This document shows positions 21,188 through 64,000 of a stretch of 64,000 nucleotides of DNA, piece by piece. Each line of letters begins with the position of its first letter. Positions within the stretch are counted from its first letter, which is position 1. A model generated the notes under the pieces. It saw nothing but the letters and a program-made list of their open reading frames with translations, did not search any database and was not told where the DNA came from. The position numbers and the translations under genes are program-made. Location of the stretch: positions 16,988,001-17,052,000 of the forward strand of contig CM059452.1 of NCBI GenBank assembly GCA_030390025.1. The letters run 5' to 3'. This DNA comes from Squalus acanthias (Eukaryota).

Positions 21188-21566
21188 GTGAAATATTCAA
21201 ATAACTCTAAGATACATTTACATTATAGCCACGATTATCTCACACATTTCAAACAGAAAGACAGAATCCCATTGATATTTTTCTCAGCGATACATTCTGA
21301 TCTTTTAACTAAAGGCATTCTACTTTGGGAATCACCAAGAGAACATATTTTATTTTCAGAACACAGCGATGTTAATAAACAGATGAGGAAAATCCACGGC
21401 GTTCGAAATTCAACCGATAAATCGGCTTATAAAAGAGGGATAAAATAATGAAGCAGATGTTTCGTTCTCTACGACATTTATCTCACGGTTTTTATCAATG
21501 AAACGTTTAGAGATTTGTCAAACCGCTTCAGTCAGGTTTAAGTGTGAGTGGATTGAATCTTCTCAC

Positions 21567-21694
21567 CTTCACCAGAGTGACGGCAGCGCTGTATGAAATG
21601 CTCAGGAAGAACAGGAGGATGAATGTGGAAGCGGTTGTCCAGATGCTGCCGCTCTCTTCCTCATAGTCTTCAATCCAGATGTGGTCTGAGGAAT
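21567..21694 (-). pseudogene. IGHM: IgM heavy chain TM1 exon (open reading frame, part of pseudogene)
   Basis: TAG|(D)SSDHIWIEDYEEESGSIWTTASTFILLFFLSISYSAAVTLVK|GTGAG: acidic spacer plus the conserved antigen-receptor TM (CART) motif. Phase 1, matching the CH4 cryptic donor. Confidence 0.95.
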
Positions 21695-26100: not shown

Positions 26101-29100
26101 CTCTGGTGAGGGAGTGGGGGTACAGTGGGTTAACAATTGTTCTTTCCTCTCTTTCTATGGTGGAGTTGGAGTACAGTGGGTTAACAATTGCCCTTTCCTC
26201 TCTTTCTGGTTGGTGTCTGGGGTTACAGTTGGTTAACAATTTCCCTTTCCTCTCTTTCTGGTGGGGGTCTGGAGTTCAAGTTGGTAAACAATTGTCCTTT
26301 CCAGTCTCACTGGTGGGGGAGTGGGGGTGCAGTGGGTTAACAATTGCTCTGTCCCCTCTCACTGGTGGGGGAGTGGGAGGTACAGTGGGTTAGCAGTTGC
26401 ACATTCCCCTCTCTCTGGTGGTGGAGGCGAGTACATTCGGTTAATTAATGTCCTGTCCCCTCTCTCTGGTGGGGAGGAGGGGGGTAAAGTGGGTTAATAA
26501 TTGTCCTTCCCCCACTCTCTTGTGGGGCAGTTGTGGTACAGTGGGTTAACAATTGCCCTTTCCCCTCTCTCTGGTGGGGGAGTGGGGGTACAGTGTGTTA
26601 ACACTTGCCCTTGCCCCTCTCTCTGATTGGGGAGTGGGGGGTACAATGTGTTAACAATTGCCCTTTCCCCTCTCTCTGGTGGGGGAGTGGGGGTACAGTG
26701 TATTAACAATATCCCTTTTCCCTCTCTCTGGTGGGGATGTGGGAGGTACAGTGGGTTAACAATTGTCCTTTCCCCTCTCACTGGTGGGGGAGTGGGAGGT
26801 ACAGTGGGTTAACAATTGCACATACCCCTCTCTCTGGTGGTGGAGGGGAGTAGAGTCGGTTAACTAATGTCCTGTCCCCTCTCTCTTGTGGTGGAAGTGG
26901 TGGGCTCAGTGGGTTAACAATTGCCCTTTCCCCTCTCTCTGGTGTGGGAGTGGTGGGTACAGTTGGTTAACAATTGCCCTTTCCCCTCTCTCTGGTGCGG
27001 GAGCGGGGGCTACAGTGTGTTAACAATTGCCCTTTCCCCTCTCTCTGGTGCGGGAGTGGTGGTACAGTGGGTTAATTATTGACAATTCCGCTCTCTCTGG
27101 TGGGGGAGTGGAGGTACTTTGGGTTAACAATTGCCCTTTCCCCTCTCTCTGGTGGGGTGTGGAGGTACAGTGGGTTAACAATTGGCCTCTCCCCTCTCTC
27201 TGGTGGGGGAGCGGTTGGTACAGTGGGTTAACAATTGCCCGTTACCCTCTCTCTGGTGGTGGGAGCGGGGGCTACAGTGGGTTACCAATTGCCCTTCCCC
27301 CACTCTCTGGTGGGGGGAGCGGTGGCTACAGTGGGTTAACAATTGCCCTTTCCACTCTCTCTGTTGGGTGAGTGGGGGTACAGTGGGTTAACAATTGCCC
27401 TTCTCCCTCTCTCTGGTGCGGGAGCGGGGGCTACAGTGGGTTAACAATTGCCCTTTCCACTCTCTCTGTTGGGTGAGTGGGGGTACAGTGGGTTAACAAT
27501 TGCCCTTTACCCTCTCTCTGGTGGGGGAGTGGGGTGTACAGTGGGTTAACAATTGCCCTTTCCCCTCTCTCTGAAGGGGGAGTGGGGGTACAGTGGGATA
27601 ACAATTGCACTTTTCCCTCTCTCTGGTGGGGGAGTGGGGGTACATTGGGTAAACAATTGCCCTTTCCTCTCTCTCTGGTGGGGGAGTGGGTGTACAGTGG
27701 GTTAACAATTGCCCTTTCCCCTCTCTCTGAAGGGGGAGTGGGGGTACAGTGGGCTAACAATTGCCCTTTCCCCTCTCTCTGAAGGGGGAGTGGGGGTACA
27801 GTGGGATAACAATTGCAGTTTTCCCTCTCTGGTGGGGGAGTGTGGGTACAGTGGGATAACAATTGCACTTTTCCCTCTCTGGTGGGGTAGTGTGGGTACA
27901 GTGGGATAACAATTGCACTTTTCCCTCTCTCTGGTGGGAGAATGGGGGTACAGTGGGTTAACAATTGCACTTCCCCCTCTCTCTGGTGGGGGAGTTGGGG
28001 TACAGTCGGTAAACAATTGTCCTTTCCCCTCTCTCTGGTGGGGGAGTGGGGGCACATTGGGTAAACAATTGCCCTTTCCCCTCTCTCTGGGGGGGAGTGG
28101 GGGTACAGTGGGTTAACAATTGCCCTTCCCCCTCTCTCTGGTGGGAGAATGGGGGTACAGTGGGTTAACAATTGCACTTTTCCCTCTCTCTGGTGGGGAA
28201 GTGTGGGTACAGTGGGATAACAATTGCACTTTCCCCTCTCTCTGGTGGGGGAGTGGGGGAACAGTGCGTTCACAATTGCCCTTTCCTCTCTCTCTGGTGG
28301 GGAAGTGGGCGTACAGTTGGTTAACAATTGCACTTTCCCCTCTCTCTTTTGTGGGTGTGGGTGTACAGTGAGTTAACTATTGCTCTCTTCCCTCTATCTG
28401 GCGGAAGAGTGAGGATACAGTGGTTTAACAATTGCCATTTCCCCCCTCTCTGTTGGTGAAGTTGGGATACAGTGTGTTAACAATTGCCAATTCCACTGTC
28501 CCTGGTGGCGGAGGGGGGTACCCTGGGTTAATATATGTCCTGTCCTCTCTCACTGTTGTGGGAGTGGGAGGTACAGTGGGTTAACAATTTCCCCTCTCTC
28601 TGGTGGGGGAGTGGGGGTACAGTGTGTTAACAATTGTCCTTCCCCCTCTCTCTGGTGAGGGAGTGGGGGTACAGTGGGTTAACAATTGTTCTTTCCTCTC
28701 TTTCTATGGTGGAGTTGGAGTACAGTGGGTTAACAATTGCCCTTTCCTCTCTTTCTGGTTGGTGTCTGGGGTTACAGTTGGTTAACAATTTCCCTTTCCT
28801 CTCTTTCTGGTGGGGGTCTGGAGTTCAAGTTGGTAAACAATTGTCCTTTCCAGTCTCACTGGTGGGGGAGTGGGGGTGCAGTGGGTTAACAATTGCTCTG
28901 TCCCCTCTCACTGGTGGGGGAGTGGGAGGTACAGTGGGTTAGCAGTTGCACATTCCCCTCTCTCTGGTGGTGGAGGCGAGTACATTCGGTTAATTAATGT
29001 CCTGTCCCCTCTCTCTGGTGGGGAGGAGGGGGGTAAAGTGGGTTAATAATTGTCCTTCCCCCACTCTCTTGTGGGGCAGTTGTGGTACAGTGGGTTAACA

Positions 29101-32100
29101 ATTGCCCTTTCCCCTCTCTCTGGTGGGGGAGTGGGGGTACAGTGGGTTAACACTTGCCCTTGCCCCTCTCTCTGATTGGGGAGTGGGGGGTACAATGTGT
29201 TAACAATTGCCCTTTCCCCTCTCTCTGGTGGGGGAGTGGGGGTACAGTGTATTAACAATATCCCTTTTCCCTCTCTCTGGTGGGGATGTGGGAGGTACAG
29301 TGGGTTAACAATTGTCCTTTCCCCTCTCACTGGTGGGGGAGTGGGAGGTACAGTGGGTTAACAATTGCACATACCCCTCTCTCTGGTGGTGGAGGGGAGT
29401 AGAGTCGGTTAACTAATGTCCTGTCCCCTCTCTCTTGTGGTGGAAGTGGTGGGCTCAGTGGGTTAACAATTGCCCTTTCCCCTCTCTCTGGTGTGGGAGT
29501 GGTGGGTACAGTTGGTTAACAATTGCCCTTTCCCCTCTCTCTGGTGCGGGAGCGGGGGCTACAGTGTGTTAACAATTGCCCTTTCCCCTCTCTCTGGTGC
29601 GGGAGTGGTGGTACAGTGGGTTAATTATTGACAATTCCGCTCTCTCTGGTGGGGGAGTGGAGGTACTTTGGGTTAACAATTGCCCTTTCCCCTCTCTCTG
29701 GTGGGGTGTGGAGGTACAGTGGGTTAACAATTGGCCTCTCCCCTCTCTCTGGTGGGGGAGCGGTTGGTACAGTGGGTTAACAATTGCCCGTTACCCTCTC
29801 TCTGGTGGTGGGAGCGGGGGCTACAGTGGGTTAACAATTGCCCTTCCCCCACTCTCTGGTGGGGGGAGCGGTGGCTACAGTGGGTTAACAATTGCCCTTT
29901 CCACTCTCTCTGTTGGGTGAGTGGGGGTACAGTGGGTTAACAATTGCCCTTCTCCCTCTCTCTGGTGCGGGAGCGGGGGCTACAGTGGGTTAACAATTGC
30001 CCTTTCCACTCTCTCTGTTGGGTGAGTTGGGGTACAGTGGGTTAACAATTGCCCTTTACCCTCTCTCTGGTGGGGGAGTGGGGTGTACAGTGGGTTAACA
30101 ATTGCACTTTCCCCTCTCTATGGTGGGGAGTGAGGGTACAGTGGGTTAACAATTGCCCTTTCCCCGCTCTCTGGTTGGTGAGTGGGGGTACAGTGGGTTA
30201 ACAATTGCCCTTTCCCCATTCTCTGGTTGGGGAGTAGGGGTACAGTGGGTTAACAATTGCCCTTTCCCCTCTCTCTGGTGGGGGAGCGGGTGGTACAGTG
30301 GCTTAACAATTGCCCTTTCCCCATTCTCTGGTGGGGGAGTGGTGGTACAGTTGATTAACAATTGCCCTTTCCCCTCTCTCTGGTGGGTGAGTGGGGCTAC
30401 AGTGGGTTAACAATTGCCCTTTCCCCATTCTCTGGTTGTGGAGTGGGGGTACAGTGGTTTAACAATTGCCCTTTCCCCTTTCTCTGTTGTGGGAGTGTTG
30501 CTAATGTTGTTTAAGAGTCGACCTTTCCAGTCTCTCTGTTATGGGAGTGGGTTACAGTTGGTTAAGAGTCGACCTTTCCAGTCTCTCTGTTGTGGGAGTG
30601 GGTTACATTTGGTTAACAATTTCCCTTTCCCCTCTCTCTGGTGGGGGCGATTCGGTACAGTGGGTTAACAATTGCCCTTTCCTCTCTTTCTATGGGGGAG
30701 TGGGTGTACAGTGGGTTAACAATTGCCCTTTCCTCTCTTTCTACGGGGGAGTGGGGGTACAGTGGGTTAACAATTTCCCTTTCCTCTCTTTCTATGGGGG
30801 TGTGGGGGTACAGTGGGTTAACAATTCCTCTTTCCTCTCTTTCTATGGGGGTGTGGGGGTACAGTGGGTTAACAATTTCACTTTCCTCTCTTTCTATTGG
30901 AGATTCGGGGTCCAGTGGGTTAACAATTGCCCTTTCCTCTCTTTCTGTTTGGGGTCTGGGGTTACAGTTGGTTAACAATTGTCCTTTTCTCCCTCTCTGG
31001 TGGGGGAGTGGGTGTACAGTGTGTTAACCATGGCCTTTTTCCCTCTCTCTGTTGTGGGAGTGGGGGTGCAGTGGGTTAACAATTGCTCTGCCCCCTCTCT
31101 CTGGTCGGGGAGTTGGTGGTACAGCCGTTTAACTATTGCCCTTTCCCCTCTCTCTGGTGCGCAGGGGGTACAGTTGGTTAATAATTGGCCTTTCCCCTCT
31201 ATCTGGTGGGGGACTGGGTGTATAGTAGGTTAAGAATTGCCCTTTCCTCCCTCTCTGGTGGGGGAGTGGGGGTACAGTGTGTTAACAATTGCCTTTGTCC
31301 CTCTCTCTGTTGGGGAGAGGTGGTACAGTGTGTTAACAATTGCCCTTTCCCCTCTCTCTGGTGGCGGATTTGGAGGTACATTGTGTTAACAATTGCCCTT
31401 TCCCCTCTCTCTGGTGGGGAAGAGAGGGATCAGTGGGTTAAGAATTGCCCTTTCCCCTCTCTCTGTTGGGGAGTGGGGGTACAGTGTGTTAACAATTGCC
31501 TTTTCCCCTCTCTCTGGTGGCGGAGTTGGAGGTACATTGGGTTAACAATTGCCCTTTCCCCTCTCTATGGTGGGGAAGAGGGGCATCAGTGGGTTAACAA
31601 TGGCCTTTTTCCCTCTCTCTTTTGGGGAGAGGGGGTACAGTGTGTTAACAATTGCCCTTTCCCCTCTCTCTGGTGGGGGAGTGGGGGTCTAGTGGGTTAA
31701 CAATTGCCCTTTTCCCTCTCTCTGTTGGGGAGTGGGGGTACAGTGTGTTAACAATTGCCTTTTCCCCTCTCTCTGGTGGCGAAGTTGGAGGTACAGTGGG
31801 TTAACAATTGCCCTTTCCCCTCTCTCTGGTGGGGGAGTGGGGGTCTAGTGGGTTAACAGTTGCCCTTTCCCCTCTCTCTGGTGGGGGAGTGGGGGTACAG
31901 TGGGTTAACAATTGCCTTTTCCCCTCTCTCTGGTGGGGAAGAGAGGGATCAGTGGGTTAACAATTGCCCTTTCCCCTCTCTCTGTTGGGGAGTGGGGGTA
32001 CAGTGTGTTAACAATTGCCTTTTCCCCTCTCTCTGGTGGCGGAGTTGGAGGTACATTGGGTTAACAATTGCCCTTTCCCCTCTCTATGGTGGGGAAGAGG

Positions 32101-34470
32101 GGCATCAGTGGGTTAACAATTGACCTTTCCCCTCTCTCTGGTGGGGGAGTGGGGTTACAGTAGGTTGACAATTGCCCTTTCCTCGATCTGGTGGGGGAGT
32201 GTTGGTACAGTGGGTTAACAATTGCCCTTTCCCCTCTCTCTGGTGGGGGAGTGGGGGTACAGTGGGTTAACAATGGCCTTTTTACCTCTCTCTTTTGGGG
32301 AGAGGGGGTACAGTGTGTTAACAATTGCCCTTTCCCCTCTCTCTGGTGGGGGAGTGGGGGTCTAGTGGGTTAACAATTGCCCTTTTCCCTCTCTCTGTTG
32401 GGGTAGATGGGGTACAGTGGGTTAACAATTGCCCTTTCCTCCCTCTCTGGTGGGGGAGTGGGGGTACAGTGTGTTAACAATTGCCTTTCCCCTCTCTCTG
32501 GTGGGGGAGTTGGAGGTACATTGGGTTAACAGTTGCCCTTTCCCCTCTCTCTGGTGTGGGAGTGGGGGTACAGTGGGTTAACAATTGTCCTTCCCCCACT
32601 CTGGTGTGGGAGTGGGGTACAGTGGGTTAACAATTGCCTTTCCTCTCTCTCTGGTGTGAGAGTGGGGGTACAGTGGGTTAACAATTGCCATTCCCCCGCT
32701 CTCTGGTGGGGGTGTGGGTGTACATTGGGTTAACAATTGCCTTTCCTCTCTCTCTGGTGGGAGAGTGGGGGTACAGTGGGTTAAAAATCGCACATCCCCC
32801 TCCCTCTGGTGGGGGAGTGGGGTACATTGGGTTAACAATTGCCCTTTCCCCTCTCTCTGGTGGGGTAATGGATTACAGTGAGTTAACAGTCGCCCTTTCC
32901 CCTCTCTCTGGTGGGGTAGATGGGGTACAGTGGGTTAACAATTGCCCTTCTCCCTCTCTCTAGTGGGTTAGGGGGGGATTTAGTGGGTTAATAATTGCCC
33001 TTGCCCCTCTCTCTGATTGGGGAGTGGTGGGTAGAGTGGGTTAATTGCCCTTTCGCCTCTCTCTGGTTGGGGAGTGGGCGGTACAGTGGGTTAACAATTG
33101 CCCTTCTCCCTCTCTCTAGTGGGTTAGGGGGGGATTTAGTGGGTTAATAATTGCCCTTTCCCCTCTCTCTGGTTGGGGAGTGGGGGTACAGTGAGTTAAC
33201 AATTGCCCTTTCCCCTCTCTCTGGTTGGGGAGTGGGCGGTACAGTGGGTTAACAATTGTCCTTTCCCGTCTCTCTGGTGGGGGAGTGGGGTACAGTGGGT
33301 TAAGGATTGTCCTTCCCAATCTCTGGTTGGGGAGTGGTGCTCAGGGGGTTAACAATTGCCCTTTCCACTCTCTCTGGTGGGGGAGTGGGGGTACAGTGGG
33401 TTAAGGATTGTCCTTCCCAATCTCTGGTTGGGGAGTGGTGCTCAGGGGGTTAACAATTGCCCTTTCCACTCTCTCTGGTGGGGGAGTGGGGGTACAGTGT
33501 ATTAACAATTGCCACTTCGCCTCTCTCTGGTGGGGGAGTGGGGGTACAGTGAGTTAAATTTTGATCTTCCCCCTCTCTCTGGTGGAGGAGAGTGGGATCA
33601 GTGGGTTAACAATTGTCCTTCTCCCTCTCTCTAGTGAGGTAGTGGGGGGATTTAGTGGGTTAATAATTGCCCTTGCCCCTCTCTCTGATTGGGGAGTGTT
33701 GGGTACAGTGGGTTAACGTTTGCCCTTTCCCCTCTCTCTGGTTGGGGAGTGGTGTTACAGTGGGTTAACAATTGTCCTTCTCCATCTCTCTGGTGGGGTA
33801 GTGGGGGTACAGTGGGTTAACAATTGCCCTTCTCCATCTCTCTGGTGGGGTAGTGGGGGTACAGTGGGTTAACAATTGCACTTTCCCCTCTCTCTGGTGG
33901 GGGCGATTCGGTACAGTGGGTTAACAATTGTCCTTTCCCGTCTCTCTGGTGGGGGAGTGGGGGGTATATGTGGTTATCAATTATCCTTTCCCCTCTCCCT
34001 GGTGGGGGAACGCTGTACAGTAGTTTAACAATCGCTCTTCTCCCTCTCTCTGCTGGGGTGGTGGGTGGCACAGTTGGTTAACAATTGCCTTTTCCCCTCT
34101 CTCTGGTGGGAGAGTCGGAGCTACAGTGGGTTAACAGTTGCTCTATCCCCTCTCTCTGGTGGGGGAGTGGGGGTACAGTGGGTTAACAATTGCCCTTTCG
34201 CCTCTCTCTGGTGGGGGAGTGGGGGTACAGTGGGTTAACAATTGCCTTTTCCCCTCTCTCTTGTGGGGGAGTCGGAGCTACAGTGGGTTAACAGTTGCTC
34301 TATCCCCTCTCTCTGGTGGGGGAGTGGGGGTACATTGGGTTAACAATTGCCTTTTCCTCTCTCTCTGGTGGAGGAGTGGGGTTACGGTTGTTTAAAGATT
34401 GCCCTTTCGCCTCTCTCTGGTGGGCAGTGGAGGTACAGTGCATCAACACTTGCCTTTCCCCTCTCTCTGG
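23200..34470. repeat. 11-kb satellite, ~52-bp unit CAGTGGGTTAACAATTGCCCTTTCCCCTCTCTCTGGTGGGGGAGTGGGGGTA, in the IgM CH4-TM intron
   Basis: More than 200 diverged copies, including a near-identical higher-order duplication with 2549-bp offset. All ORFs here are artefacts. Confidence 0.97.
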
Positions 34471-34699
34471 TGAGACACAGTTCATGGTCCTCTGTGGCCG
34501 GACTTCAGTGAGTGCGATTCTCCAAATGAAAACTGTCCCCAATTCTGATGGGATGAATAACACGAGAAACTGGGAGACCGAGATCTAAATGTGCAGCCTT
34601 TGCTTGTCGGTAATGTGAATATTCAGATTCCCCCAGCGGAGGGAAATTTGCTCAAGTTACTTTGAGGAATGCTGTAGTCAGAGAGCTTCACTCTGTCTC

Positions 34700-37053: not shown

Positions 37054-37444
37054 TCAATGATAAGAATTGACAGTGTCATTCAGTACAAGGGAAATGTTCA
37101 CAAACATTGTTTACCACTGGATTTATTGATCGTTCTGGTGATGATCTTCAAGGGGAGCGCTTCATGTCCCACCACACAGGAGTAAGAAGCGCCGCTGGCC
37201 CACTCCTCCGCTGCAATGGATAACAGGCTGTAAATGAAGAAGGAACTGCTGCCGTTCTCCGCCATCACCTCGGTGTTCTTGTAGTTGCTGGAATTCACCG
37301 GCTTGTCATTGACGATCATCTTGACGAAGATCTCTCGGGGGGAGAAACCTCTCCCTAAGCAGGTGAGTATGACGAACCTCTGAGCGGAGATTTCTTCTGC
37401 CGAGGGCAGGAGGACAGACGCGAACGTTTGCCGCGGATCTTTAG
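37054..37444 (-). pseudogene. IGHM: IgM CH4 exon plus secretory tail (frameshifted)
   Basis: CAG|(A)[47 protein letters not shown]...[29 protein letters not shown]. Cryptic TM donor G|GTAAA at 37115/37114. The tail [19 protein letters not shown] has a 1-nt deletion and Cys>Tyr. The conserved Trp is replaced by Met. AATAAA at 37027-37032. Confidence 0.95.
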
Positions 37445-37927: not shown

Positions 37928-38236
37928 CTTTTTCCTTGTGGATGGAATTCCTCATAGGAGTCGGCATATCCTGATGGTTCACCACGCAGGTGAACTCATC
38001 CCCACTCAGCCAGGCTTGTGTCGAGATGTTGAAGTTGCTGATCACGCTGTTGGGATCCTCTCCGGTTTGAACGGCAATCTGTGATTTCAAAATATTCTTT
38101 CCTCTGGTCCAGGTCACGTTGACTCCATAAGGAGCATTAGACACGAAGCAGTTTAAGGTCATCGTGGCCTCCAGTAAGACCTGTTCTAGTGACGGTTACC
38201 GAAGAATAATCACTGGACCGTTGCATGAGGAAGGAT
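37928..38236 (-). pseudogene. IGHM: IgM CH3 exon (in-frame stop)
   Basis: CAG|(D)[41 protein letters not shown]...[33 protein letters not shown]|GTGAG. The TAA is at 38196-38198. Closely resembles shark Cmu3 as I recall it. Confidence 0.95.
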
Positions 38237-38934
38237 CTGTGAAACAGAAATGAAAGTCAAGCAAGGCTTCATCTTCACAATCAGGAGACCAGTGTTCAGC
38301 CATTACTGTCTCAAGGAGAATAAATCACCTTTGAGATATCACCCTCTCGCTGTTGCTTAAACACCATCATTAATGGAATGACAAGGAATTGGCAACGATT
38401 CCGGGAGACTCTTTAACATTTCCAGTGTATTTGCTCCCAGAGCCTCCTGTAATGGGCTGTGAAGCAAATACGCGGCGTAACAAAAGAATTAAATTCGGGT
38501 GCAATTGTTTTACGCACTGAATAACGCACTTCCCGAAATCCCTTGCTCCTTTATGCCAGTCTATAGACCCTTGAGCTCGATCACATCTCCGCTCATTATA
38601 ATGGCGCCGCCCCCAGGGTCACGAGCTCGACACGAAAATTACACTCGTTCAAAACGACTGTCAAACAAAATCCAGGATTTTAGGTGCAAAAAGGTAAATT
38701 TTCTGGTGACTTGTTGTAATTTTTGTCGCGATGAAAATCTGCAGGAACCAGTTGCAGCTCCCGTCAGAGAAAATGTGAAAGGTCGAGAGAATGGAGTTCC
38801 AAGGGGTCTTTTGTGTTGGGGAAATATGTGTAATGCCGGTGTGAGGTAGTTTATTCACTTCTGTCATTAGTGAACGTTTATCGTGTCTGGTGAGAGAGTC
38901 TGAATGGAATATGACCGCAGGGCATTAATACCAA

Positions 38935-39470
38935 CACAGGGACAGGAGGAGGTCATTCAGCGCCTCCAGCCTGTTCCGACATTCAATTAAATCCTGACTG
39001 ATCTGCACCTCAACACCATCTACCCGCCTTGTTTCTGTAACCCTTGATACCCTTGTCTAACAAAAATCCAGCAAACTCAGTTTTGAAATTTTTAATTGAC
39101 CCCCTGCCTCAACAGCTTTTTGGGGGAGAGAAGTCCAGATTGCCACTACCCTTTGTGTGAAGGAATCCTTCCTGACATCACCGCTGCGGCCTAGCTCTAA
39201 TTTTAAGGTTATGCTCCTTGATCTGGACTCCCCCACCTATATCAACCCAATCAATTCCATTTATCAACTTAAACACCTCAATTAGATCACCTCTTAATCT
39301 TCTATACTCAAAGGAATACAAGCCTATTCTGTGCAACCTGTCCTCATTATTTTATTCTTTTATCCGCGGTATCATTCTGGTAAATCTGCACTGTAGCCCC
39401 TCCAAGGCCAGTATATCCTGCCTGATGTGTAGTGCCCAGAATTGAACGCAGTTCTCTAAATAGGGTAGAT
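38935..39470 (-). mobile_element. Degenerate CR1 3' fragment
   Basis: Minus strand LENCVQFWAL..ILALE, RRLRGDLIEVFK and a CR1 3'UTR. Confidence 0.8.
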
Positions 39471-39654
39471 GCCCTTTCTAGCAGTCGGTTCCTGGACAGT
39501 TACCAGTAAAGGGTTCCAGACACCCACTGCCGCTCCGAATATGATCAGCCAACTCAGGAAAAACCTGCGACCAAGGACACCTCACTAACTGTCTGACACC
39601 AGAGCAGAGAGAAACATTCTCTGCCGAGATTAGTGAATCCTGAACCGTGAGGAA

Positions 39655-39935
39655 TCCTGATTCAGAAGATCGTGGGTTCAAGTCCCACTCCAGAGACTTG
39701 AACACGAAATGTAAATCGACACTCCCAGTTCAGTACTGAGGGGGGCGCTGCACTGTCGGAGTTGCTGTCTTTCACATCAGATGTTAAACCGAGGATCCGC
39801 CTGCTCACGCAGGTGTGCGTAATAGATCCCATGGCACTATTTCGAGGAAGAGCAGGGGAGTTCTCCCCGGTGTCCTGGCCAATATTTATCCCGAAACAAA
39901 CATCACTAAACCAAAAGGTTATCTGGTCATTATCA
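39655..39935 (+). mobile_element. Deu-domain tRNA-derived SINE
   Basis: GGTTCAAGTCCC B-box and a core homologous to 7472-7797. Confidence 0.8.
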
Positions 39936-42900
39936 CCAGAACTGCGCACAGTATTCTAAGAGCGATATGGACAGCGTAACTCTACACAGTAATCTAAGTG
40001 TGATATGGAGACCAGGACTGTGCAGAGTATTCAAAGTGTGATATGGAGACAGAACTGAGTACAGTATTCTAATTTTGATAAGTAGATCAGAACCGTGCAT
40101 AATACTCTAAGTGTGAAATGGAGAACAGAACTGTCCACAGTATTCTGAGTGTGATGGGGAGATCAGAACTGTGCAGATAACTCTAAATGTAATATGGAGA
40201 TCAGAACTATGAACAGTATTCTAAGTGTGATATGGAAACCAGAACTCTATACAGTATTCTAAGTTTGATATGACACCAGAACTGTGCACATACCTCCAAG
40301 TGTGATACGGAGACCAGAACAGTGCACAGTATTCTAAGTGTGCTATGGAGACCAGAACTCTACACAGTATCCTAAATGTGATAGGAGAACAACCTGTGCA
40401 CAGAACTCTAAATGTGATATGGAGACCAGAACTGTGCACAGTTTTCTAAGTGTGATATGAGACCAGAACTCTACACAGATTTCTAAGTGTGATATGAGAT
40501 CAGAACTGTGCACAGAACTCTAAATGTGATATGAGACCAGAACTTTGCACAGTACTCTAAGTGTGATATGGAGAACAGAACTCTGCACAATATTGTAAGT
40601 GATATATGGAGACCGGAACTCTTCACAGTACTCAAAATGTGATATGGAGACCAGAGCTGTGCACAGTATTTTAAATGTGATATTGGGACCAGGACTGTGC
40701 AGAGTATTCAAAGTGTGATATGGAGACCAGAACTGTGCACAGTATTCTAAGTGTGATATGGAGACCAGAACTGTGCACAGAACTCTAAATGTGATATGGA
40801 GTTCAGAATTGTGCACAGTATTCTAAGTGTGATATGGAGACCAGAACTCTGCTCATTACAGTAAGTGTGCTATGGAGACCAGAATTGTGTACAATACTTT
40901 AAGTATGATGTGGATACCAGAACTGTGCAGAGTGTTGTAAATCTGATATGGAGGCCAGAATTCTGCACAGTACAGTAAGTGTGATATGGTGACCAGAACT
41001 GTGCATATTATTCTAAGCGTGATATGAGACCAGCACTGTGCACAGAACACTAAATATGATATGAGACCAGAACTGTGCACAGTATTCTAAGTGTGATAAG
41101 AGAACAGAACTGTGCACATACCTCTAAGTGTGATATGGAGACCAGAACTGTGCACCGTATTCTAAGTGTGATATGGAGAGCAGAACTCTGCACAGTATTT
41201 TAAGTGTGATAAGAGAACAGAACTGTGCACATACCTCTAACTGTGATATGGAGACCAGAACTGTGCACCGTATTCTAAGTGTGATATGGAGACCAGAACT
41301 GTGCACAGTATTCTAAGTGTGATATAGGAGACCAGAACTCTGCACAGTATTCTAAGTGTGATATGAGACCAGAACTGTGCGCATACCTCTAAGTGTGATA
41401 TGGAGACCAGAACTGTGCACCGTATACTAAGTGTGATATGGAGACCAGAACTCTGCACAGTATTCTAAGTGTGATAAGAGAACAGAACTGTACACATAAC
41501 TCTAAGTGTGATATGAAGACCAAAACTGTGCACCGTATTCTAAGTGTGATATGGAGATCAGAACTGTGCACCGTATTCTAAGTGTGATGTGGAGACCAGA
41601 ACTCTGCACAGTATTCTAAATGTGATATGAGACCAGAACTGTGCGCATACCTCTAAGTGTGATATGGAGACCAGAACTGTGCACCGTATTCTAAGTGTGA
41701 TATGGAGAGCAGAACTCTGCACAGTATTCTAAGTGTGATAAGAGAACAGAACTGTGCACATACCTCTAACTGTGATATGGAGACCAGAACTGTGCACCGT
41801 ATTCTAAGTGTGATATGGAGACCAGAACTGTGCACAGTATTCTAAGTGTGATATAGGAGACCAGAACTCTGCACAGTATTCTAAGTGTGATATGAGACCA
41901 GAACTGTGCCCATACCTCTAAGTGTGATATGGAGACCAGAACTGTGCACCGTATTCTAAGTGTGGTATGTAGACCAGAACTCTGCACAGTATTCTAAGTG
42001 TGATAAGAGAACAGAACTGTACACATAACTCTAAGTGTATTATGGAGACCAGAAATGTGCACCGTATTTTAAGTGTGATATGGAGACCAGAACTGTGCAC
42101 CGTATTCTAAGTGTGATCTGGAGACCAGAACTCTGCACAGTATTCTAAGTGTGATATGAGACCAGAACTGTGCGCATACCTCTAAGTGTGATATGGAGAC
42201 CAGAACTGTGCACCGTATTCTAAGTGTGATATGGAGACCAGAACTGTGCACAGTATTCTAAGTGTGATATGGAGACCAAATCTGTGCAACGTATTCTAAG
42301 TGTGATATGGAAACCAGAACTGTGCACCGTATTCTAAGTGTGGTATGTAGACCAGAACTCTGCACAGTATTCTAAGTGTGATAAGAGAACAGAACTGTAC
42401 ACATAACTCTAAGTGTATTATGGAGACCAGAAATGTGCACCGTATTTTAAGTGTGATATGGAGACCAGAACTGTGCACCGTATTCTAAGTGTGATCTGGA
42501 GACCAGAACTCTGCACAGTATTCTAAGTGTGATATGAGACCAGAACTGTGCGCATACCTCTAAGTGTGATATGGAGACCAGAACTGTGCACCGTATTCTA
42601 AGTGTGATATGGAGACCAGAACTGTGCACAGTATTCTAAGTGTGATATGGAGACCAAATCTGTGCACCGTATTCTAAGTGTGATATGGAAACCAGAACTG
42701 TGCACCGTATTCTAAGTGTGATATGGAGACCAGAACTCTGCACAGTATTCTAAGTGTGATATGAGACCAGAACTGTGCGCATACCTCTAAGTGTGATATG
42801 GAGACCAGAACTGTGCGCCGTATTCTTAGTGTGATATGGAGACCAGAACTGTGCACAGTATTCTAAGTGTGATATGGAGACCAGAACTGTGCACCGTATT

Positions 42901-43766
42901 CTAAGTGTGATATGGAAACCAGAACTGTGCACCGTATTCTAAGTGTGATATGGAGACCAGAACTCTGCACAGTATTCTAAGTGTGATATGAGACCAGAAC
43001 TGTGCGCATACCTCTAAGTGTGATATGGAGACCAGAACTGTGCACCGTATTCTAAGTGTGATATGGAGACCAGAACTGTGCACAGTATTCTAAGTGTGAT
43101 ATGGAGACCAGAACTGTGCACCGTATTCTAAGTGTGATATGGAGACCAGAACTGTGCACCGTATTCTAAGTGTGATATGGAGACCAGAACTCTGCACAGT
43201 ATTCTACGTGTGATATGAGACCAGAACTGTGCGCATACCTCTAAGTGTGATATGGAGACCAGAACTGTGCACCGTATTCTAAGTGTGATATGGAGACCAG
43301 AACTGTGCACAGTATTCTAAGTGTGATATGGAGACCAGAACTGTGCACCGTATTCTAAGTGTGATATGGAGACCAGAACTGTGCACCGTATTCTAAGTGT
43401 GATATGGAGAGCAGAACTCTGCACAGTATTCTAAGTGTGATATGAGACCAGAACTGTGCGCATACCTCTAAGTGTGATATGGAGACCAGAACTGTGCAGG
43501 ACGGTTACCGGGAGGAGCGGGAAGTCGGCGTAGGACCAAGGGGACACAAGACTGGGAAGTCAGCGAAAGACCAGGGAGGTAAGACTAACTGGTAAGTACT
43601 TTCCTCAAACCTTCCTAGAAAGTAAAACTAAAACTAGTGGGATTTGGTTAGTTTAAAAAGGAATAAGAGGAGTACAGTATACATTGGTCTAAGTAAGCTT
43701 CGGGAAAACAAAAGTCAATAAATAAACTAAAACTAGAAAATTAAAAAGTAATATAAGGGTTAAGTC

Positions 43767-44714
43767 ATGGCAGTAGAGCTCGGACCTGTGTCATGCTCCT
43801 CCTGTAACATGTGGGAAATCAGGGACGCTTCCTGTGTCCCTGACAACCATGTGTGCGGGAAGTGTGTCCAGCTGCAGCTCATGTGGGACCGCATGACGGC
43901 CCTTGAGCTGCGGATGGACTCACTTTGGAGCATCCACGATTCTGAGAGGGTTGTGGATAGCACATTTAGTGAGTTGGTCACACCGCAGGTTAAGGCCAGC
44001 GTAGATAGTACATGGGTGACCAAAAGGCAGAGCAAGGGCAGGAAGGTAGTGCAGAAATCCCCTGGGGTTGTCTCCCTTAGCAAAAGGTTCACCGCCTTAG
44101 GTGCTGTTGTCGGGGGGGATGGCTCATCGGGGGAAGGCACCAGCAGCCAGGCTCATGGCACCATGACTGGCTCTGTTGCAAAGAAGGGAGGGAAAAAGAG
44201 TGGCAGGGCTATAGTAATAGGGGATTCGATTGTAAGGGGAATAGATAGGGGTTTCTGTGGTCGCGACCGAGACTCCAGGATGGTATGTTGCCTCCCTGGT
44301 GCAAGGGTCAAGGATGTCTCGGCGCGGGTGCAGAACATTCTGGAGGGGGAGGGGGAACAGCCAGTTGTCGTGATACATGTTGGTACCAACGACGTAGATA
44401 AAAAAAGGGAAGAGGTCCTACAAGTAGAATTTAGGGAGTTAGGAGCCAAGCTAAAAAGTAGGACCTCGAAGGTAGTAATCTCTGGATTACTACCAGTGCC
44501 ACGTGCTAGTAAGCGTACAGAGAACAGGATAGTTAGGCTAAATACGTGGCTTGAGCAGTGGTGTAAGAGGGAGGGTTTTAAATTTTTGAGGCATTGGAAC
44601 CAGTTTTGTGGTAGGTGTGACCTATACAAAAGGGACGGTCTACACCTGTGCAAAGATGGAACTGATGTTCTCGGGGTAATTTTTGATAAAGCATTTCGGG
44701 AGCATTTAAACTAG
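43767..44714 (+). CDS. CR1 ORF1p (N-terminal Cys zinc-binding motif + SGNH/GDSL esterase domain)
   Basis: 315 aa; CSSCNMW..CGKC, GDSIVRG, HVGTND, DGLHL. Confidence 0.9.
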   Translation: MAVELGPVSCSSCNMWEIRDASCVPDNHVCGKCVQLQLMWDRMTALELRMDSLWSIHDSERVVDSTFSELVTPQVKASVDSTWVTKRQSKGRKVVQKSPGVVSLSKRFTALGAVVGGDGSSGEGTSSQAHGTMTGSVAKKGGKKSGRAIVIGDSIVRGIDRGFCGRDRDSRMVCCLPGARVKDVSARVQNILEGEGEQPVVVIHVGTNDVDKKREEVLQVEFRELGAKLKSRTSKVVISGLLPVPRASKRTENRIVRLNTWLEQWCKREGFKFLRHWNQFCGRCDLYKRDGLHLCKDGTDVLGVIFDKAFREHLN

Positions 44715-44788
44715 TATGGCAGGGGGCTAGAAACCTATGTAGTGAAATAGAGGAAAGTGAAAGGCAGACAGAAATAAATGGTAAAAGA

Positions 44789-47656
44789 ATGAGGAACAAA
44801 AAACAAAGGGCCAAACTAATTCATAAAAAATGTGAGCATAAAAAAAGCCTGAGGGTTTTATACCTTAATGCGAGAAGCATCAGGAACAAGGTAGATGAAT
44901 TAGCTGTGGAAATAGAGGTTAATAATTATGATCTAATTGGGATTACGGAAACATGGTTACAGGGTGAGCAGGGCTGGGAGCTTAACATACAGGGGTATTC
45001 AGTATTTAGGAAGGATCGACAAAAAAGAAAGGGAGGAGGGGTAGCATTGCTGGTAAAAGAGGGGATAAATGCAATTGAAAGGAAGGATATTAACTCAGTT
45101 AATACAGAATCTATATGGGTGGAGCTAAGAAATAGCGAGGGGCGAAAAACAGTAATAGGAGTGGTATATAGGCCTCCAAATAGTAAAATAGAGGTTGGGG
45201 AGGGCATCACGAGGGAAATTAGAGAAGCGTGCAATAAGAGCACAGCTGTCATCATAGGTGACTTTAACTTACATATAGATTGGGCTAGCCTAATCAGTAA
45301 AAATAATGAGGAGGAGGAATTCCTTGAGTGTTTAAGGGATGGTTATCTGGATCAATATGTCGAGGAACCAACTCGGGAACAGGCTATATTGGACTGGGTA
45401 CTGTGCAATGAGAAGGGACTAATTAGTAATCTTGTTGTACGGGGACCCTTGGGTCAGAGCGATCATAACATGATCGATTTCTCACTCGAAATGGAGAGCG
45501 AAGAAATTGACTCAGAGACTAAGGTCCTGAATTTAAACAAGGGGAATTATGATGCCATTAGACGGGAACTGAGTAGTTCTGATTGGACAACGTTCCTGGG
45601 AGGACTGGAGGTAGATAAACAATGGCAAGCATTTAAAGATAGAATGACAAAATTGCAAAAATTGTTTATACCAATCTGGCATAAAAGGAAATCTAAAAAG
45701 GTGACTCAACCGTGGATAACAGGGGAAATTAGAGACAGCATAAAATCCAAAGATAGGGCGTATAAAATAGCCAAAAAAAGCGCCAGAGCGGAAGATTGGG
45801 AACAGTTTAAGATAGAGCAAAGGAGGACAAAGGGCTTAATCAAGAGGGGCAAAATAGCTTACGAAAGCAAGCTGGCGGAAAATATAAAAACTAACTCCAA
45901 AAGCTTTTATAAGTATATCAAGAGGAAAAGACTGGTGAAAACCAAAGTTGGTCCATTGCAGTCAGATACGGGGGAATATATAACGGGAAATAAGGAAATG
46001 GCAGACCAATTAAATGCATACTTTGGGTCAGTCTTTACGAAGGAAGACACAAAAAACCTCCCTGGGATATCGGGAAAAATAGGGACATTGGCAAAGGAGG
46101 AACTGACGCAAATCAATATCTCTAAGGATATGGTGTTAAGGAAGCTAAAGGGATTGAAGGCGGACAAATCCCCAGGGCCTGATAACATGCATCCTAGGGT
46201 ACTGAAGGAGGTGGCCCTAGAGATAGCGGATGCACTAAGTATGATTTTTCAGAATTCATTAGACTCGGGAACAGTGCCCATGGATTGGAGGGTAGCTAAC
46301 GTTACCCCACTATTCAAAAAGGGGGGTAGGGAAAAAGCAGGTAATTACAGACCTGTAAGCCTTACATCAGTTGTGGGCAAAATGCTGGAGTCCATCATTA
46401 AGGATGAAATAGCGGAGCACTTAGCAAATGGGGACAGGATAGGACAGAGTCAACATGGATTTACAAAGGGTAAATCGTGCTTGACTAATCTATTGGAATT
46501 TTTTGAGGGAGTAACTGGTAAAATAGATGGGGGAGAGCCAGTAGATGTGGTGTACCTGGACTTCCAAAAGGCCTTCGACAAGGTCCCACATAAAAGATTA
46601 GCATGGAAAGTTGAAGCTCATGGGATAAATGGGAAAGTATTGACGTGGATAGAGAACTGGCTGTCAGATAGAAAACAGAGAGTTGGAATAAACGGCTCAT
46701 TTTCTGAATGGCAGGCAGTAACAAGTGGGGTACCACAGGGATCTGTCCTGGGTCCCCAGCTGTTCACAATTTACATTAATGACCTGGATCAGGGAGTCGG
46801 ATGCAGCATTTCCAAATTTGCAGACGACACTAAACTTGGAGGGGGAGTGGGCTCAGAGGAGGAGACCAGGAAGCTCCAGAGCGATTTGGACAGACAGGGT
46901 GATTGGGCGGATAAATGGCAGATGCACTATAATGTGGACAAGTGCGAAGTTATCCACCTTGGGTGCAGGAACGGGAGGGCAAATTATTATTTAAATGGCA
47001 ATAAATTGGGAGAGGGGGAAGTACAGAGAGACCTGGGTGTTCTTGTACACCAGTCACTGAAGGCGAGCATGCAGGTGCAACAGGCGGTCAAGAAGGCAAA
47101 CGGTATGCTGGCCTTCATAGCAAAAGGGTTGGAATACAGGAACAGGGATACCTTGCTGCAGCTGTACAGGGCACTGGTGAGACCACACCTCGAGTACTGT
47201 GTACAGTTTTGGTCGCCTCATCTGAGGAAAGATGTTCTTGCCATGGAGGGGGTGCAGCGGCGATTCACCAGGCTGATACCAGGAATGGCGGGATTGACCT
47301 ATGAGGAGAGACTATGTAGTTTAGGGATGTACACACAGGAGTTTAGAAGATTGAGAGGGGACCTCATAGAAGTGTATAGAATTCTGACAGGTCTAGACAG
47401 ACTAGATGCAGAAGGAATGTTTCCCTTGGCGGGTGAGAACAGAACTAGAGGACATAATTTAAGGATAAGGGCTAAACCATTTAGGACAGAAATGAGGGGG
47501 AATTTCTTCACTCAGAGGGTGGTGAACCTGTGGAACTCATTGCCACAGAGGGCAGTGTACGCCAGCTCATTAAATATATTTAAGAGGGAATTAGATATAT
47601 TTCTACAGGCAAAAGAGGTTAAGGGTTACGGAGAGAAGGCGGGGACGGGATACTGA
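44789..47656 (+). CDS. CR1 ORF2p (APE endonuclease + reverse transcriptase)
   Basis: 955 aa, uninterrupted; YLNARSI, ITETW, GDFN, SDH, PGPD, QHGF, DFQKAFD, QGSVLGP, FADDTK. Confidence 0.95.
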   Translation: MRNKKQRAKLIHKKCEHKKSLRVLYLNARSIRNKVDELAVEIEVNNYDLIGITETWLQGEQGWELNIQGYSVFRKDRQKRKGGGVALLVKEGINAIERKDINSVNTESIWVELRNSEGRKTVIGVVYRPPNSKIEVGEGITREIREACNKSTAVIIGDFNLHIDWASLISKNNEEEEFLECLRDGYLDQYVEEPTREQAILDWVLCNEKGLISNLVVRGPLGQSDHNMIDFSLEMESEEIDSETKVLNLNKGNYDAIRRELSSSDWTTFLGGLEVDKQWQAFKDRMTKLQKLFIPIWHKRKSKKVTQPWITGEIRDSIKSKDRAYKIAKKSARAEDWEQFKIEQRRTKGLIKRGKIAYESKLAENIKTNSKSFYKYIKRKRLVKTKVGPLQSDTGEYITGNKEMADQLNAYFGSVFTKEDTKNLPGISGKIGTLAKEELTQINISKDMVLRKLKGLKADKSPGPDNMHPRVLKEVALEIADALSMIFQNSLDSGTVPMDWRVANVTPLFKKGGREKAGNYRPVSLTSVVGKMLESIIKDEIAEHLANGDRIGQSQHGFTKGKSCLTNLLEFFEGVTGKIDGGEPVDVVYLDFQKAFDKVPHKRLAWKVEAHGINGKVLTWIENWLSDRKQRVGINGSFSEWQAVTSGVPQGSVLGPQLFTIYINDLDQGVGCSISKFADDTKLGGGVGSEEETRKLQSDLDRQGDWADKWQMHYNVDKCEVIHLGCRNGRANYYLNGNKLGEGEVQRDLGVLVHQSLKASMQVQQAVKKANGMLAFIAKGLEYRNRDTLLQLYRALVRPHLEYCVQFWSPHLRKDVLAMEGVQRRFTRLIPGMAGLTYEERLCSLGMYTQEFRRLRGDLIEVYRILTGLDRLDAEGMFPLAGENRTRGHNLRIRAKPFRTEMRGNFFTQRVVNLWNSLPQRAVYASSLNIFKRELDIFLQAKEVKGYGEKAGTGY

Positions 47657-48387
47657 ATTGAAGGATCAGCCATGATCTCATTAAATGGCGGAGCAGGCTC
47701 GAAGGGCCGGATGGCCTACTCCTGCTCCTATCTTCTATGTATCTATGTATCTATGTAACTGTGCACAGTATTCTAAGTGTGATATGGAGACCAGAAGTCC
47801 GCACAGTATTTTAAGTATGATATGGATACCTGAACTCTGCACTGTACAGTAAGTGTGATATGAGACCATAATTGTGCACAGTATTCTAAGTGTGATATGG
47901 AGACCTGAACTCTGCTCGTTACAGTAAGTGTGCTATGGAGAGCAGAATTGTGCACAGTACTTTAAGTATGATATGGATACCAGAACTGTGCAGAGTATAC
48001 TAAATGTGACATGGAGACCAGAATTCTGCACAGTACAGGAAGTGTGATATGGAGAGCGGAACTATACACAATATTCTAAGTGTGATATGAGACCAGAACT
48101 GTGCACAGAACTCTAAATATGATATGAGAACAGAACTGTGCACAGTACAGTAAGTGTGATATGAGACCAGAACTGTGCACAGAACACTAAATATGATATG
48201 AGACTACAACTGTGCACAGTATTCTAAGTGTGATATGGAGACCAGAATTGTGCACAGTATTCTAAATGTGATATGGTGACCAGAACTGTTCACAATACTC
48301 TAAGTGTGGACTAACCAAATTACTATAAAAGTTGAACATGTCTCCTTACCTTATGACAGTTTTAGCCCTGTATCCCACAACACTAAC

Positions 48388-48687
48388 CTGCCATTGTGAT
48401 GTTCCAGATCGACTCACTTCGTCGACACACACAGTAGATTGTGCTGCTCCCCACCTCTGACTCGGTGAGGGTTAACTGGCTGCTCAGGATGTAGGTTCCC
48501 CTCTTGTTGAGCATTGACAAGCAAATCTTCTATCCAGTGGTGAGCGGCTCTTTACCTTTCTTCCAGGAACGGCTGGTGATTTCGGGGAAGTAGTCCATCG
48601 CCAAATAGCCGAAGGTGACAGAGCCGTCGGTGTTGGGTTGTTGACAGGAGGAGAGCAGGGTGAAGAGGGTGGGAGGAGACAGTGTCG
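48388..48687 (-). pseudogene. IGHM: IgM CH1 exon (in-frame stop, Cys>Tyr)
   Basis: CAG|(A)[98 protein letters not shown]|GTTAGT. 300 nt, with TAG at 48530-48532. Closely resembles shark Cmu1 as I recall it. Confidence 0.95.
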
Positions 48688-49559
48688 CTGGGAAAGAATG
48701 GACAATTGAACAAGTTAGAATCTGTAATCCGTGCTCATCAAACAACCAAACAACTCGAAATTTGACTCCGGGATAATCTCATTCCATCTTTTTTCCGCAC
48801 AAAGACTACATCGTCATTTGAGCTTCTGTCAGTTCCATCATTGACACCTGTAGATCCCCTGGTCAGGAACACACCTCTCTGTCCCCGAGCCCTAACACAT
48901 TACAGAAATAAGAACCTTTTCTCCTCACCTGAATAAACTATCTTTTATTGGATCATAGAATAGAAGATCAGACTCGTTTCCCTGCTATATCGGCCAGCAT
49001 TTATTTCTGAATCCACGACACTTTTATTCATTCATTTCATTGCAGTTTGTGGAAATTTGCTCTGTGCCAATTTGCTGCTCCGTTTCCTTACAAAACAACA
49101 ATGATTACACTTCAACAGTAACAGCGTAATCCGTGCTTATAACATTAGATATAACTCCTCAAACCTTGACTAACATAGAACTGAACAGGGAACTTATCCA
49201 TGGCCTAGTTTCTAAGTTTCAAGCTGCAGATGAATCGGGATTGATTCGAACATATCTCTTTCCTTCTCAGTATTTGAGGAAGAGAGATGTATTTCAACGC
49301 ATTGTGATTTGTGCTCTGTCCCATTCTATTGAATGGATGTCTCCTGAGTTTCCTCCTCCCTCCCGCTAAATTAATAATCCGAATTAAATACGATTCCCAC
49401 GTCCGGTCAATTGGAAGTGTCTCTTTAAATGGCCAACCGCCTACCACCAGTGAGAAGAGGCGCTGCTTTCTGGGTCCTAATAGGCACCACTTGTTGCTGT
49501 TTGTACCGAGCATAGTCTAAACATCTGGGCAGGTTTCTTCTCTAAATATCTAATATTGG

Positions 49560-62845: not shown

Positions 62846-63231
62846 GGTAACTACATTTTCTGAGTTTAAATGAAGGTGAACAAATGTGGTCCCAGAACGG
62901 ATCCCTGCAAGACACCATTTCTCACTGTCTGCCATTCTGACAAAAGTCCCGTAACTCCTACCCACTGATTAATGTTTTGGAGCGGAATTTCCATTTATTG
63001 GACCACATGTTCAGGAGAACAACAGAAGAAAGAATGTTCCATAGAAACTAGAATTATCTGTTCTGAATTTCTGTCCTGTACTTACAGTTTTGACTGTTGT
63101 AAACTCCTTTTACAGGCTATTAGAAGGGGGAGGGGGAATTTGCAGACGGGAAAACTCAAACCAAACATCTGAAAGAATCTCTTGATTCATCAGGACCTGA
63201 ATGTCATCGGCCTTTGAATGTGGAAGGAGAA

Positions 63232-63729
63232 ATGTTTGTCTGTAATGTCTGTGGGAAAAGGTTTCAAACATCAGTGTGACTGGAAAAGCACCGAGACACA
63301 CACACCCGAGTGAGAGTGTGCCAGTGCACTGACAGTGGAAAGAGCTTTAACCAGTTACACAGCCTGAAAAAATATAGCACCATTCACAGCGGGGAGAAAC
63401 CGTACACGTGTTCTGTGTGTGGACAAGACTTCAACCGATCGTCCAACCTGGAGAGACACAAGGACACCCGCACCACGGAGAAACCGTGGAAATGTGGGGA
63501 CTGAGGGAAGGGATTCATTTTCCCGTCTGAACTGGAAATTCATCATTGCAGTAACACCGGGGAGAGACTGTTCACATGTTCCGAGTGTGGGAAGGGATTC
63601 ACTCAGTTATCCAACCAGCTCAAACACCAGCGAGTTCACACTGGGGAGAGGCCGTTCACCTGCTCCCTGTGTGGGAAGGGATTCACTCAGTCATCTTTCT
63701 TGCTGAAACACCACCGAATTCACAAGTGA
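63232..63729 (+). pseudogene. C2H2 zinc-finger pseudogene (about 6 fingers)
   Basis: MFVCNVCGKRFQTSV*LEKHRDTH...GEKPYTCSVCG...CGD*GKGF...[30 protein letters not shown]. Stops at 63277-63279 and 63502-63504. Probable acceptor TTTTACAG at ~63115. Confidence 0.9.
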
Positions 63730-64000
63730 CTGCAGGGGTTGGATTCTGCTGTTCTTGCTGCTGTTGATCACATCCAGTCTTGAACCATGTTCATTCTGAC
63801 AGTTTGGGTTTGTTTCTGCTGATGTTAATAGCCCTGTAACTGGGCTGGAGTTTAATATTCTTGATATATGACGAATTAATCAACGGGGTAATGAACAGCT
63901 AAAGTTACTGCTGATTGTGTTTTCCTCCAATGCAGTTCATTCTTACATTTGCAAATACTTCACACTTTAAACAGCTTTGTTCAAATACTGAAAGGTGCAG

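Follow-up and report, generated by a model that had tools for sequence, protein, structure and literature searches.

Conventional elasmobranch IgM has a constant region of four CH domains followed by a secretory tail and the membrane exons TM1 and TM2. The nurse shark IgM1gj lacks the second of these domains; two reports describe it as an antibody of neonatal serum whose VDJ is germline-joined, and it is expressed and has its tail intact (PMC5192425, PMC4279169). Three IgM pseudogenes are also reported in nurse shark cluster loci (PMC5192425). The elasmobranch antigen-receptor complex links IgM, IgW, IgNAR and TCR alpha/delta (PMC12227049).

The IgM heavy-chain gene in the window (the whole 64,000-nt stretch of Squalus acanthias DNA that was analyzed) is a broken, dead copy. 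It was compared with conventional four-domain IgM of horn shark, nurse shark and Triakis (P0006, P0008, P0009 and P0005) and with the C29 clusters of the same genome. CH1, CH3, CH4, the tail position, TM1, the splice phases and the intron sequences are like those of conventional IgM. However, the gene has no CH2, no leader-V-D-J and no TM2, it has stops in CH1 and CH3, conserved Cys and Trp residues are lost and the tail is frameshifted. It resembles IgM1gj in having three constant domains with the second one missing, but it has no V and no joined VDJ, its frame is not open and its tail is broken. As in the loci cited above, the dead cluster lies amid TCR-V-like relics and adjoins another IgH-type gene. 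The gene is very probably a V-less IgM pseudogene with a CH2 deletion, derived from an ordinary four-domain IgM of the same genome that was already decaying, and with no likely product. A broken copy that lacks both CH2 and the variable region and decayed by itself amounts to ordinary gene decay, and decay of this gene on its own is the most likely account, rather than descent from IgM1gj.

Exons of the broken gene

The gene is on the minus strand. CH3 (37928-38236) and CH4 (37115-37444) matched Pfam C1-set (E values of 1.3e-8 and 1.8e-18, respectively). Pfam returned nothing for TM1 or for either half of CH1, and CH1 (48388-48687) and TM1 (21567-21694) were identified by their identity to paralogues. 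The sequence-only reading had called these four exons recognizable with intact phase-1 splice sites, and canonical phase-1 AG/GT sites were confirmed at CH1, CH3 and CH4. The named best matches of the CH domains were IgM, not IgW or IgNAR. CH4 was 82-92% identical to IgM loci, and its identity to the remaining Ig genes was at most 46%.

In CH1, the first canonical Cys is replaced by Tyr (48607-48605) and a TAG stop interrupts the exon at 48532-48530. CH3 contains a TAA stop (38198-38196). The CH4 frame is open, with a conserved core Trp changed to Met (37319-37317). A 1-bp deletion, also present in four-domain relatives, shortens the secretory tail (37098-37114) to GKQCL-stop, and the TM2 remnant (21415-21432) has lost both the acceptor AG and the IK-stop. 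Relative to the elasmobranch norm, the constant region therefore has CH2 deleted and the tail and TM2 broken. The stops in CH1 and CH3, the damage to the tail and TM2 and the absence of V-D-J are additions to the sequence-only reading. TM1 is indeed open, as had been pointed out, with 6 differences from conventional TM1, but this carries no weight because an exon of its divergence has an approximately 80% probability of staying open by chance and TM2 is destroyed. Introns are retained and disabling lesions are present, both traits of an unprocessed (duplicated) pseudogene.

The CH2 and V-D-J deletions

The absence of CH2 noted from the letters alone held up: tblastn, blastn (word size 7) and nhmmer --max, at E<=10, detected nothing like CH2 in the interval between CH3 and CH1 (38237-48387). 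The queries were six CH2 exons of four-domain paralogues, and the positive control, L046, scored 2e-131. The deletion junction (39937/39936, within 39930-39943, minus strand) joins the satellite of the CH1-CH2 intron to a point midway along the CH2-CH3 intron with a 2-bp GT microhomology. Both flanks align with introns of four-domain paralogues, and at least 0.9-1.3 kb is gone, including CH2 and approximately 0.45 kb of the next intron.

The interval had been thought to hold about 0.7 kb of non-Ig unique sequence. Instead, its non-satellite 1.7 kb (38237-39936, minus strand) is the 3' part of an ordinary CH2-CH3 intron, 83.5% identical to L044 over 1727 columns. The rest includes a 38-bp satellite. 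An expanded array (39937-43499) ends where the CH2 deletion has its 5' breakpoint, and a CH1-proximal array (47757-48308) is part of the normal CH1-CH2 intron. The satellite is CR1-like, as had been proposed, being 82% identical to CR1 ORF2 over 34 bp; it is not special to this interval, however, since TRF found it in seven of eight four-domain paralogues. Inserted in the satellite is a full-length CR1 LINE of 4.3 kb (43500-47756, plus strand) with two open frames, 316 and 988 codons long, and a 9-bp target-site duplication. It occurs in this copy only. The arrays of L031 and L036, the two sister copies that retain one, are uninterrupted, indicating that the insertion postdates the CH2 deletion. 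The CH2 breakpoints lie in the CR1-like satellite on one side and in a high-copy repeat on the other. Because these two sides share only GT, homologous recombination among copies of CR1 or of the satellite was ruled out as the cause of the loss. The earlier suggestion of an independent, TE-associated deletion stands as to independence, while the association with transposable elements is only loose.

The second deletion removed the leader, V, D and J, approximately 3.4 kb relative to the C130 cluster. A 5'-truncated CR1 fragment (53530-54421, plus strand) lies exactly between its ends. On one side is the last retained sequence upstream of V (54428-55259, minus strand; 83% identical to the C130 cluster). 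On the other, the J-CH1 intron survives as its 3' part (48688-53529, minus strand; 77-84% identical to four-domain paralogues), in which no V, J or leader match was found. Both junctions are common to three sister copies, and V-D-J is deleted in all four copies. A V hidden in the stretch of N at 55275-56807 was rejected by inference from the sister copies, which have a GATA array at this position and no V or J match; in the intact C130 cluster the GATA array is upstream of V. In the literature searched, with subscription papers outside its coverage, no description of this specific combination of CH2 and V-D-J deletions was found.

Copies, selection and the order of decay

The four duplicated copies are on the same contig, are 98.2-98.8% identical to one another and have the satellite-intron junction at 99-100% identity. 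CH2 is retained at 53 of the 57 CH3 loci in the genome, and the remaining four are this family, so among these loci the same CH2 absence, proposed as a point to check in paralogous clusters, is confined to its copies. The CH3 stop is present in all four copies and the CH1 stop and Cys loss in all three that have CH1, this exon having been lost from the copy at 18.07 Mb.

The secretory-tail frameshift, common with four-domain relatives, would have come first. The family stem would then have acquired the CH2 deletion, probably by end joining at the 2-bp microhomology, the V-D-J loss at the CR1 fragment, the stops in CH1 and CH3 and the loss of TM2, with no order implied among these lesions. Segmental duplication would have followed, giving four copies, and copy-specific decay would account for the satellite expansion and full-length CR1 here and for the missing CH1 at 18.07 Mb. 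The stem lesions are common to all copies, so there is no direct sign that the loss of CH2 followed gene death.

A site-class test of modest power gave a 0-fold-site rate on the family stem of 1.00-1.39 times the intron/4-fold rate, a modest indication that this stem was under no purifying selection. On the terminal branches leading to conventional genes, the 0-fold/neutral ratio was 0.34-0.40. It was 0.66 both for the stem of the conventional genes and for that of the C130 genes (p = 0.11 and 0.08), and 1.60 for the C988 stem. Codon-level counts, 30 N to 2 S on the family stem, were set aside for the site-class test because four control stems, with omega of 0.5-2.8, showed that the method undercounts S. 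No RNA data set was listed as containing the sequence, and in the single RNA-like run, X8, there was a CH3-CH4 joint with differing letters, taken to come from conventional paralogues.

CH2 might instead have been deleted in a working gene, which would independently have given an IgG-like IgM of three domains, expressed for a while before it died. With the donor of CH1 and the acceptor of CH3 both intact and matching in phase, a three-domain mRNA was possible in principle, and the stem lesions are unordered. Furthermore, IgM1gj shows the viability of a protein of this kind (PMC5192425, PMC4279169), and a germline-joined VDJ is present in the closest relative that retains CH2. However, the stem lacks purifying selection, the tail frameshift would predate the deletion, the closest relatives (on C3, C988 and C1978) have stops of their own, and none of the 57 CH3 loci is an intact three-domain gene. 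A working ancestor of this kind is quite unlikely. There is an equally slim chance that the family is the fossil, with a readable breakpoint, of a second origin of three-domain IgM that was independent of IgM1gj and perhaps germline-joined and membrane-only. A related species may keep such an IgM intact; an intact orthologue, if it exists, would be a second origin of the IgG-like architecture in sharks. For the dead gene itself, the locus is of little importance beyond illustrating, at base resolution, how shark IgM clusters undergo birth-and-death decay. It does show that the CH1-CH2 intron satellite can form a deletion breakpoint that gives an in-phase CH1-CH3 gene, a plausible route by which three-domain IgM could arise.

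Relationship to IgM1gj and exon loss elsewhere

In the CH1+CH3+CH4 protein tree, with IgM1gj represented by protein P0014, the CH2-less family (support 100/100) nested among the four-domain IgM of its own genome. Its sister was a CH2-bearing pseudogene on C3 (95/90), and both fell inside a nine-row own-genome clade (95/98). A clade of the family with IgM1gj was rejected (AU p = 0.0003), although IgM1gj sits on a long branch and bootstrap support for the node uniting all 16 own-genome rows was only 89. CH1, CH3 and DNA trees agreed. P0016 (486 aa, labeled gamma-1-like, CH2 and CH4 only) was taken as a gene-model artefact and excluded. Identities for CH1/CH3/CH4 were 49/56/75% to IgM1gj versus 68-80/68-80/82-91% to the genome's own four-domain genes. 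Judged by these sequence comparisons, the family is not of the IgM1gj lineage. The proposed decayed IgM1gj descendant is thereby rejected, and the nesting is the outcome that the sequence-only reading had taken to favor a post-pseudogenisation deletion. A missing CH2 should not be read as a mark of IgM1gj orthology.

The same domain is missing in both genes, and germline-joined VDJs occur in this genome, the closest relative included, which would fit an IgM1gj orthologue that decayed and was homogenised with local IgM by gene conversion. Besides overcoming the identities and the AU test, conversion would need to have replaced the two introns all the way to the junction, and with V absent there is no V comparison to draw on; such an origin is very improbable. 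The V-domain tree (28 rows) did not resolve, and IgM1gj grouped with none of this genome's V sequences. In L043, the joined V combines an IgM1gj-like CDR3 with a very different framework, and the constant region retains CH2.

That CH2 is missing merely through assembly collapse at the satellite is scarcely credible: one breakpoint is inside a tandem array and no contig of the public runs spans the entire CH1-CH3 interval, but the same base-exact junction occurs at all four loci and is bridged by contigs from three public DNA runs, out of four runs used; these contigs include some from a different sample and study and some from a run labeled as another organism.

Broken IgM genes in this genome often lack exons. 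CH4 stands alone in L059, L068, L069 and L070, CH2 and CH3 alone in three C1978 stretches and CH1 and CH2 alone in L058, and CH1 is deleted in L038. Separately, contig C130 carries four IgM genes with a tandem CH3-CH4 duplication, three of which have six open constant exons.

Absence of CH2 from the IgM gene

The IgM gene of the window lies on the minus strand, with exons for CH1 (48687-48388), CH3 (38236-37928), CH4 (37444-37115) and TM1 (21694-21567). The sequence-only reading had found these recognisable with intact splice sites, and canonical sites were indeed seen at CH1, CH3 and CH4. CH3 and CH4 matched the Pfam C1-set, neither half of CH1 nor TM1 had a Pfam match, and the top match of CH4 among named proteins was IgM. 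Six CH2 exons of four-domain paralogues served as queries for a search of the window together with ten loci. Within the window, tblastn, blastn and nhmmer (E<=10) returned only cross-hits to CH1, CH3 and CH4 and chance matches of 12-23 bases; the same queries gave 2e-131 at the four-domain positive control, L046. The absence of a Cmu2-like exon, claimed by the earlier reading, is confirmed by these searches.

Exon searches of the genome gave at least 47 CH1, 58 CH2 and 58 CH3 rows (150 candidates scored for each). Split exons were then merged, and six CH2 rows at 40-42% identity were removed as non-IgM. CH2 was present within 15 kb upstream at 53 of 57 CH3 loci. The remaining four were the window gene and three sister copies on the same contig (16.64, 18.07 and 18.20 Mb), so that the proposed check of paralogous clusters did find the same absence elsewhere. 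No intact three-domain IgM was found among the 57 CH3 loci. Broken IgM genes of this genome often have partial constant regions. Other truncations (CH4 alone, CH2 and CH3 alone, or CH1 and CH2 alone within the stretches fetched) were observed at L059, L068-L070, L054-L056 and L058.

Deletions and decay of the family

Of the 10.1-kb CH1-CH3 interval, 4.1 kb is satellite with a 38-bp unit and 4.26 kb is a CR1 LINE; other sequence makes up the remaining 1.7 kb. A satellite and CR1 sequence had also been described in the earlier reading. The satellite is CR1-like (82% to CR1 ORF2 over 34 bp), but TRF placed it directly after CH1 in six of seven four-domain paralogues, it also occurs in the relative on contig C3, and its presence in the CH1-CH2 intron is normal. 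The supposed 0.7 kb of non-Ig unique sequence did not hold up: these 1.7 kb proved to be what is left of an ordinary CH2-CH3 intron, its 3' part (83.5% identity over 1727 columns). The satellite abuts this intron directly at 39937/39936, where GT are the sole bases common to both parents. The deletion removed at least 0.9-1.3 kb, and its 3' breakpoint falls in a repeat of very high copy number, judged by depth, and presumably a SINE. The CR1 (43500-47756) is full-length: its two open frames run to 316 and 988 codons, and it has a target duplication of 9 bp. Since it is missing from both sister copies that retain the satellite array, its insertion is younger than the CH2 deletion. It sits inside the CR1-like satellite and is likely very young.

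The leader-V-D-J region was lost in a second deletion. What normally precedes V (54428-55259) is now linked to the J-CH1 intron by a 0.9-kb truncated CR1 (53530-54421). The stretches searched upstream of the four copies, 35.6, 23.0, 14.6 and 17.1 kb long, contained no match to V, J or leader. An 11-kb satellite (23200-34490) was also observed between CH4 and TM1, where the intron is 15 kb versus about 3.5 kb in conventional clusters.

The window gene is dead. CH1 carries a Cys to Tyr change and a TAG in all three copies having this exon. All four copies have a TAA in CH3 and lack the acceptor and the stop of TM2. In CH4, the conserved Trp is gone from the window gene, and each of the three sisters has an extra frameshift at the start of this exon. 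TM1 is open, as had been noted, and 6 of its 129 bases differ from a conventional TM1; about 80% of TM1 sequences simulated at this divergence also stayed open. The secretory tail (37098-37114) ends in GKQCL-stop through a 1-bp deletion. The same deletion is present in CH2-bearing relatives on contigs C3, C988 and C130 and in a lone CH4 on C826, and the tail frameshift is therefore older than the loss of CH2. This deletion marks a whole IgM sub-clade (the window gene, L051-L053, L057, L059 and the first CH4 of the C130 genes), whose tails are mostly GKQCL-stop with the penultimate Cys still left.

The possibility was considered that the family was once a functional, convergent three-domain IgM. 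On its stem, the 0-fold rate was 1.00-1.39 times the intron plus 4-fold rate (p 0.19-1 across three choices of outgroup), against a ratio of 0.34-0.40 on the terminal branches leading to conventional genes (p 2e-6 to 0.06). The power of the test is modest, as the ratio of 0.66 on both the conventional and the C130 stem did not reach significance and that of the C988 stem was 1.60. Such a functional past is regarded as very improbable. Every stem lesion is common to all copies, so no lesion order is readable from them. The secretory-tail frameshift would have come first, followed by the stem lesions in whatever order, then by segmental duplication of the family and finally by decay of individual copies, for instance the 18.07-Mb one, which lost CH1.

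Ancestry of the CH2 deletion

The sequence-only reading had offered either a decayed gene of the IgM1gj lineage or an independent deletion. Nurse shark IgM1gj is described in PMC5192425 and PMC4279169 as an antibody abundant in neonatal serum, with a germline-joined VDJ and no CH2. The window gene shares one feature with it, the absence of CH2, and fails the other features compared. Its CH1, CH3 and CH4 were 49, 56 and 75% identical to IgM1gj (P0014), and 68-80, 68-80 and 82-91% identical to four-domain genes of its own genome. A CH1+CH3+CH4 protein tree of 28 rows was built without four near-duplicates and without rows in which CH1 or CH3 was missing. In it, the sister of the family (100/100) was a pseudogene on C3 that retains CH2 (95/90), and both belonged to a clade of nine genes from their own genome (95/98). 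IgM1gj, on a long branch, joined the IgM of nurse shark, bamboo shark, catshark and Triakis with support of 91/92 (not starred). Constraining the family to group with IgM1gj was 62.3 log-likelihood units worse (AU p=0.0003), and CH1, CH3 and DNA trees were concordant with the protein tree. Descent from the IgM1gj lineage is rejected on this nesting and the AU test. The position within the own-genome clade and the satellite joined to the CH2-CH3 intron indicate that the window gene belongs to a family of V-less IgM pseudogenes with its own, independent CH2 deletion.

An assembly artefact is ruled out by the presence of the junction at four loci and by bridging contigs in three sequencing runs. 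The 141-base junction was found at no fewer than four places on the window's contig at 99-100% identity (40 of 2035 candidates scored), and these loci are 98.2-98.8% identical to each other. It was bridged in three of the four public runs compared: X1, possibly from the sample that was assembled, X5, from a different sample and study, and X6, with a different organism label, the latter two with 0 differences. The bridging contigs are short and not assignable to one of the four copies. The RNA-like run X8 had no bridging contig among the best 32 of about 60,000 pieces.

IgM pseudogenes in shark cluster loci are already known (PMC5192425), and the family adds to this class. A literature search, with subscription papers and supplements outside its coverage, found no description of this CH2 deletion.

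Related IgM genes and genomic neighbourhood

Four clusters on C130, near 150, 276, 543 and 700 kb (L040/L041, L049/L076, L060/L075 and L050), have CH1-CH2-CH3-CH4 followed about 4 kb on by a second CH3-CH4. The first tail is frameshifted and the second intact, the CH4 donor is in phase with the second CH3 acceptor, and in three of the four clusters six open exons occur together with an RSS-bearing split V. From their exon arrangement, these genes may possibly encode a six-constant-domain IgM, of which no description was found in the literature search. L043, near 8.94 Mb on the window's contig, has an open germline-joined VDJ on a four-domain constant region; its V is very divergent (at most 52% to other V rows) and its CDR3 resembles that of IgM1gj. 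Germline-joined VDJs are many in the genome (L086-L091, L102, L071, L074), some open and some with stops.

Two V-like relics, which we take to be of TCR type, lie on the plus strand at 7800-8300, with a tandemly repeated 3' end, and at 13490-13830, with an RSS-like heptamer and nonamer. L066/L067 (17117895-17126064 of the same contig) is an IgH-type gene with five constant exons and a secretory tail, presumably IgNAR- or IgW-like, and was duplicated together with the window region, with copies near 16.72 and 17.70 Mb. The TCR-V-like relics and the adjoining IgH-type gene fit the linkage of IgM, IgW, IgNAR and TCR alpha/delta published in PMC12227049, in which V exons of TCR type lie between IgH clusters. 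The window also contains a plus-strand C2H2 zinc-finger exon with stop codons (63130-63730) and a 46-bp tandem array (60950-62840), identified by eye as derived from the CR1 3' end.
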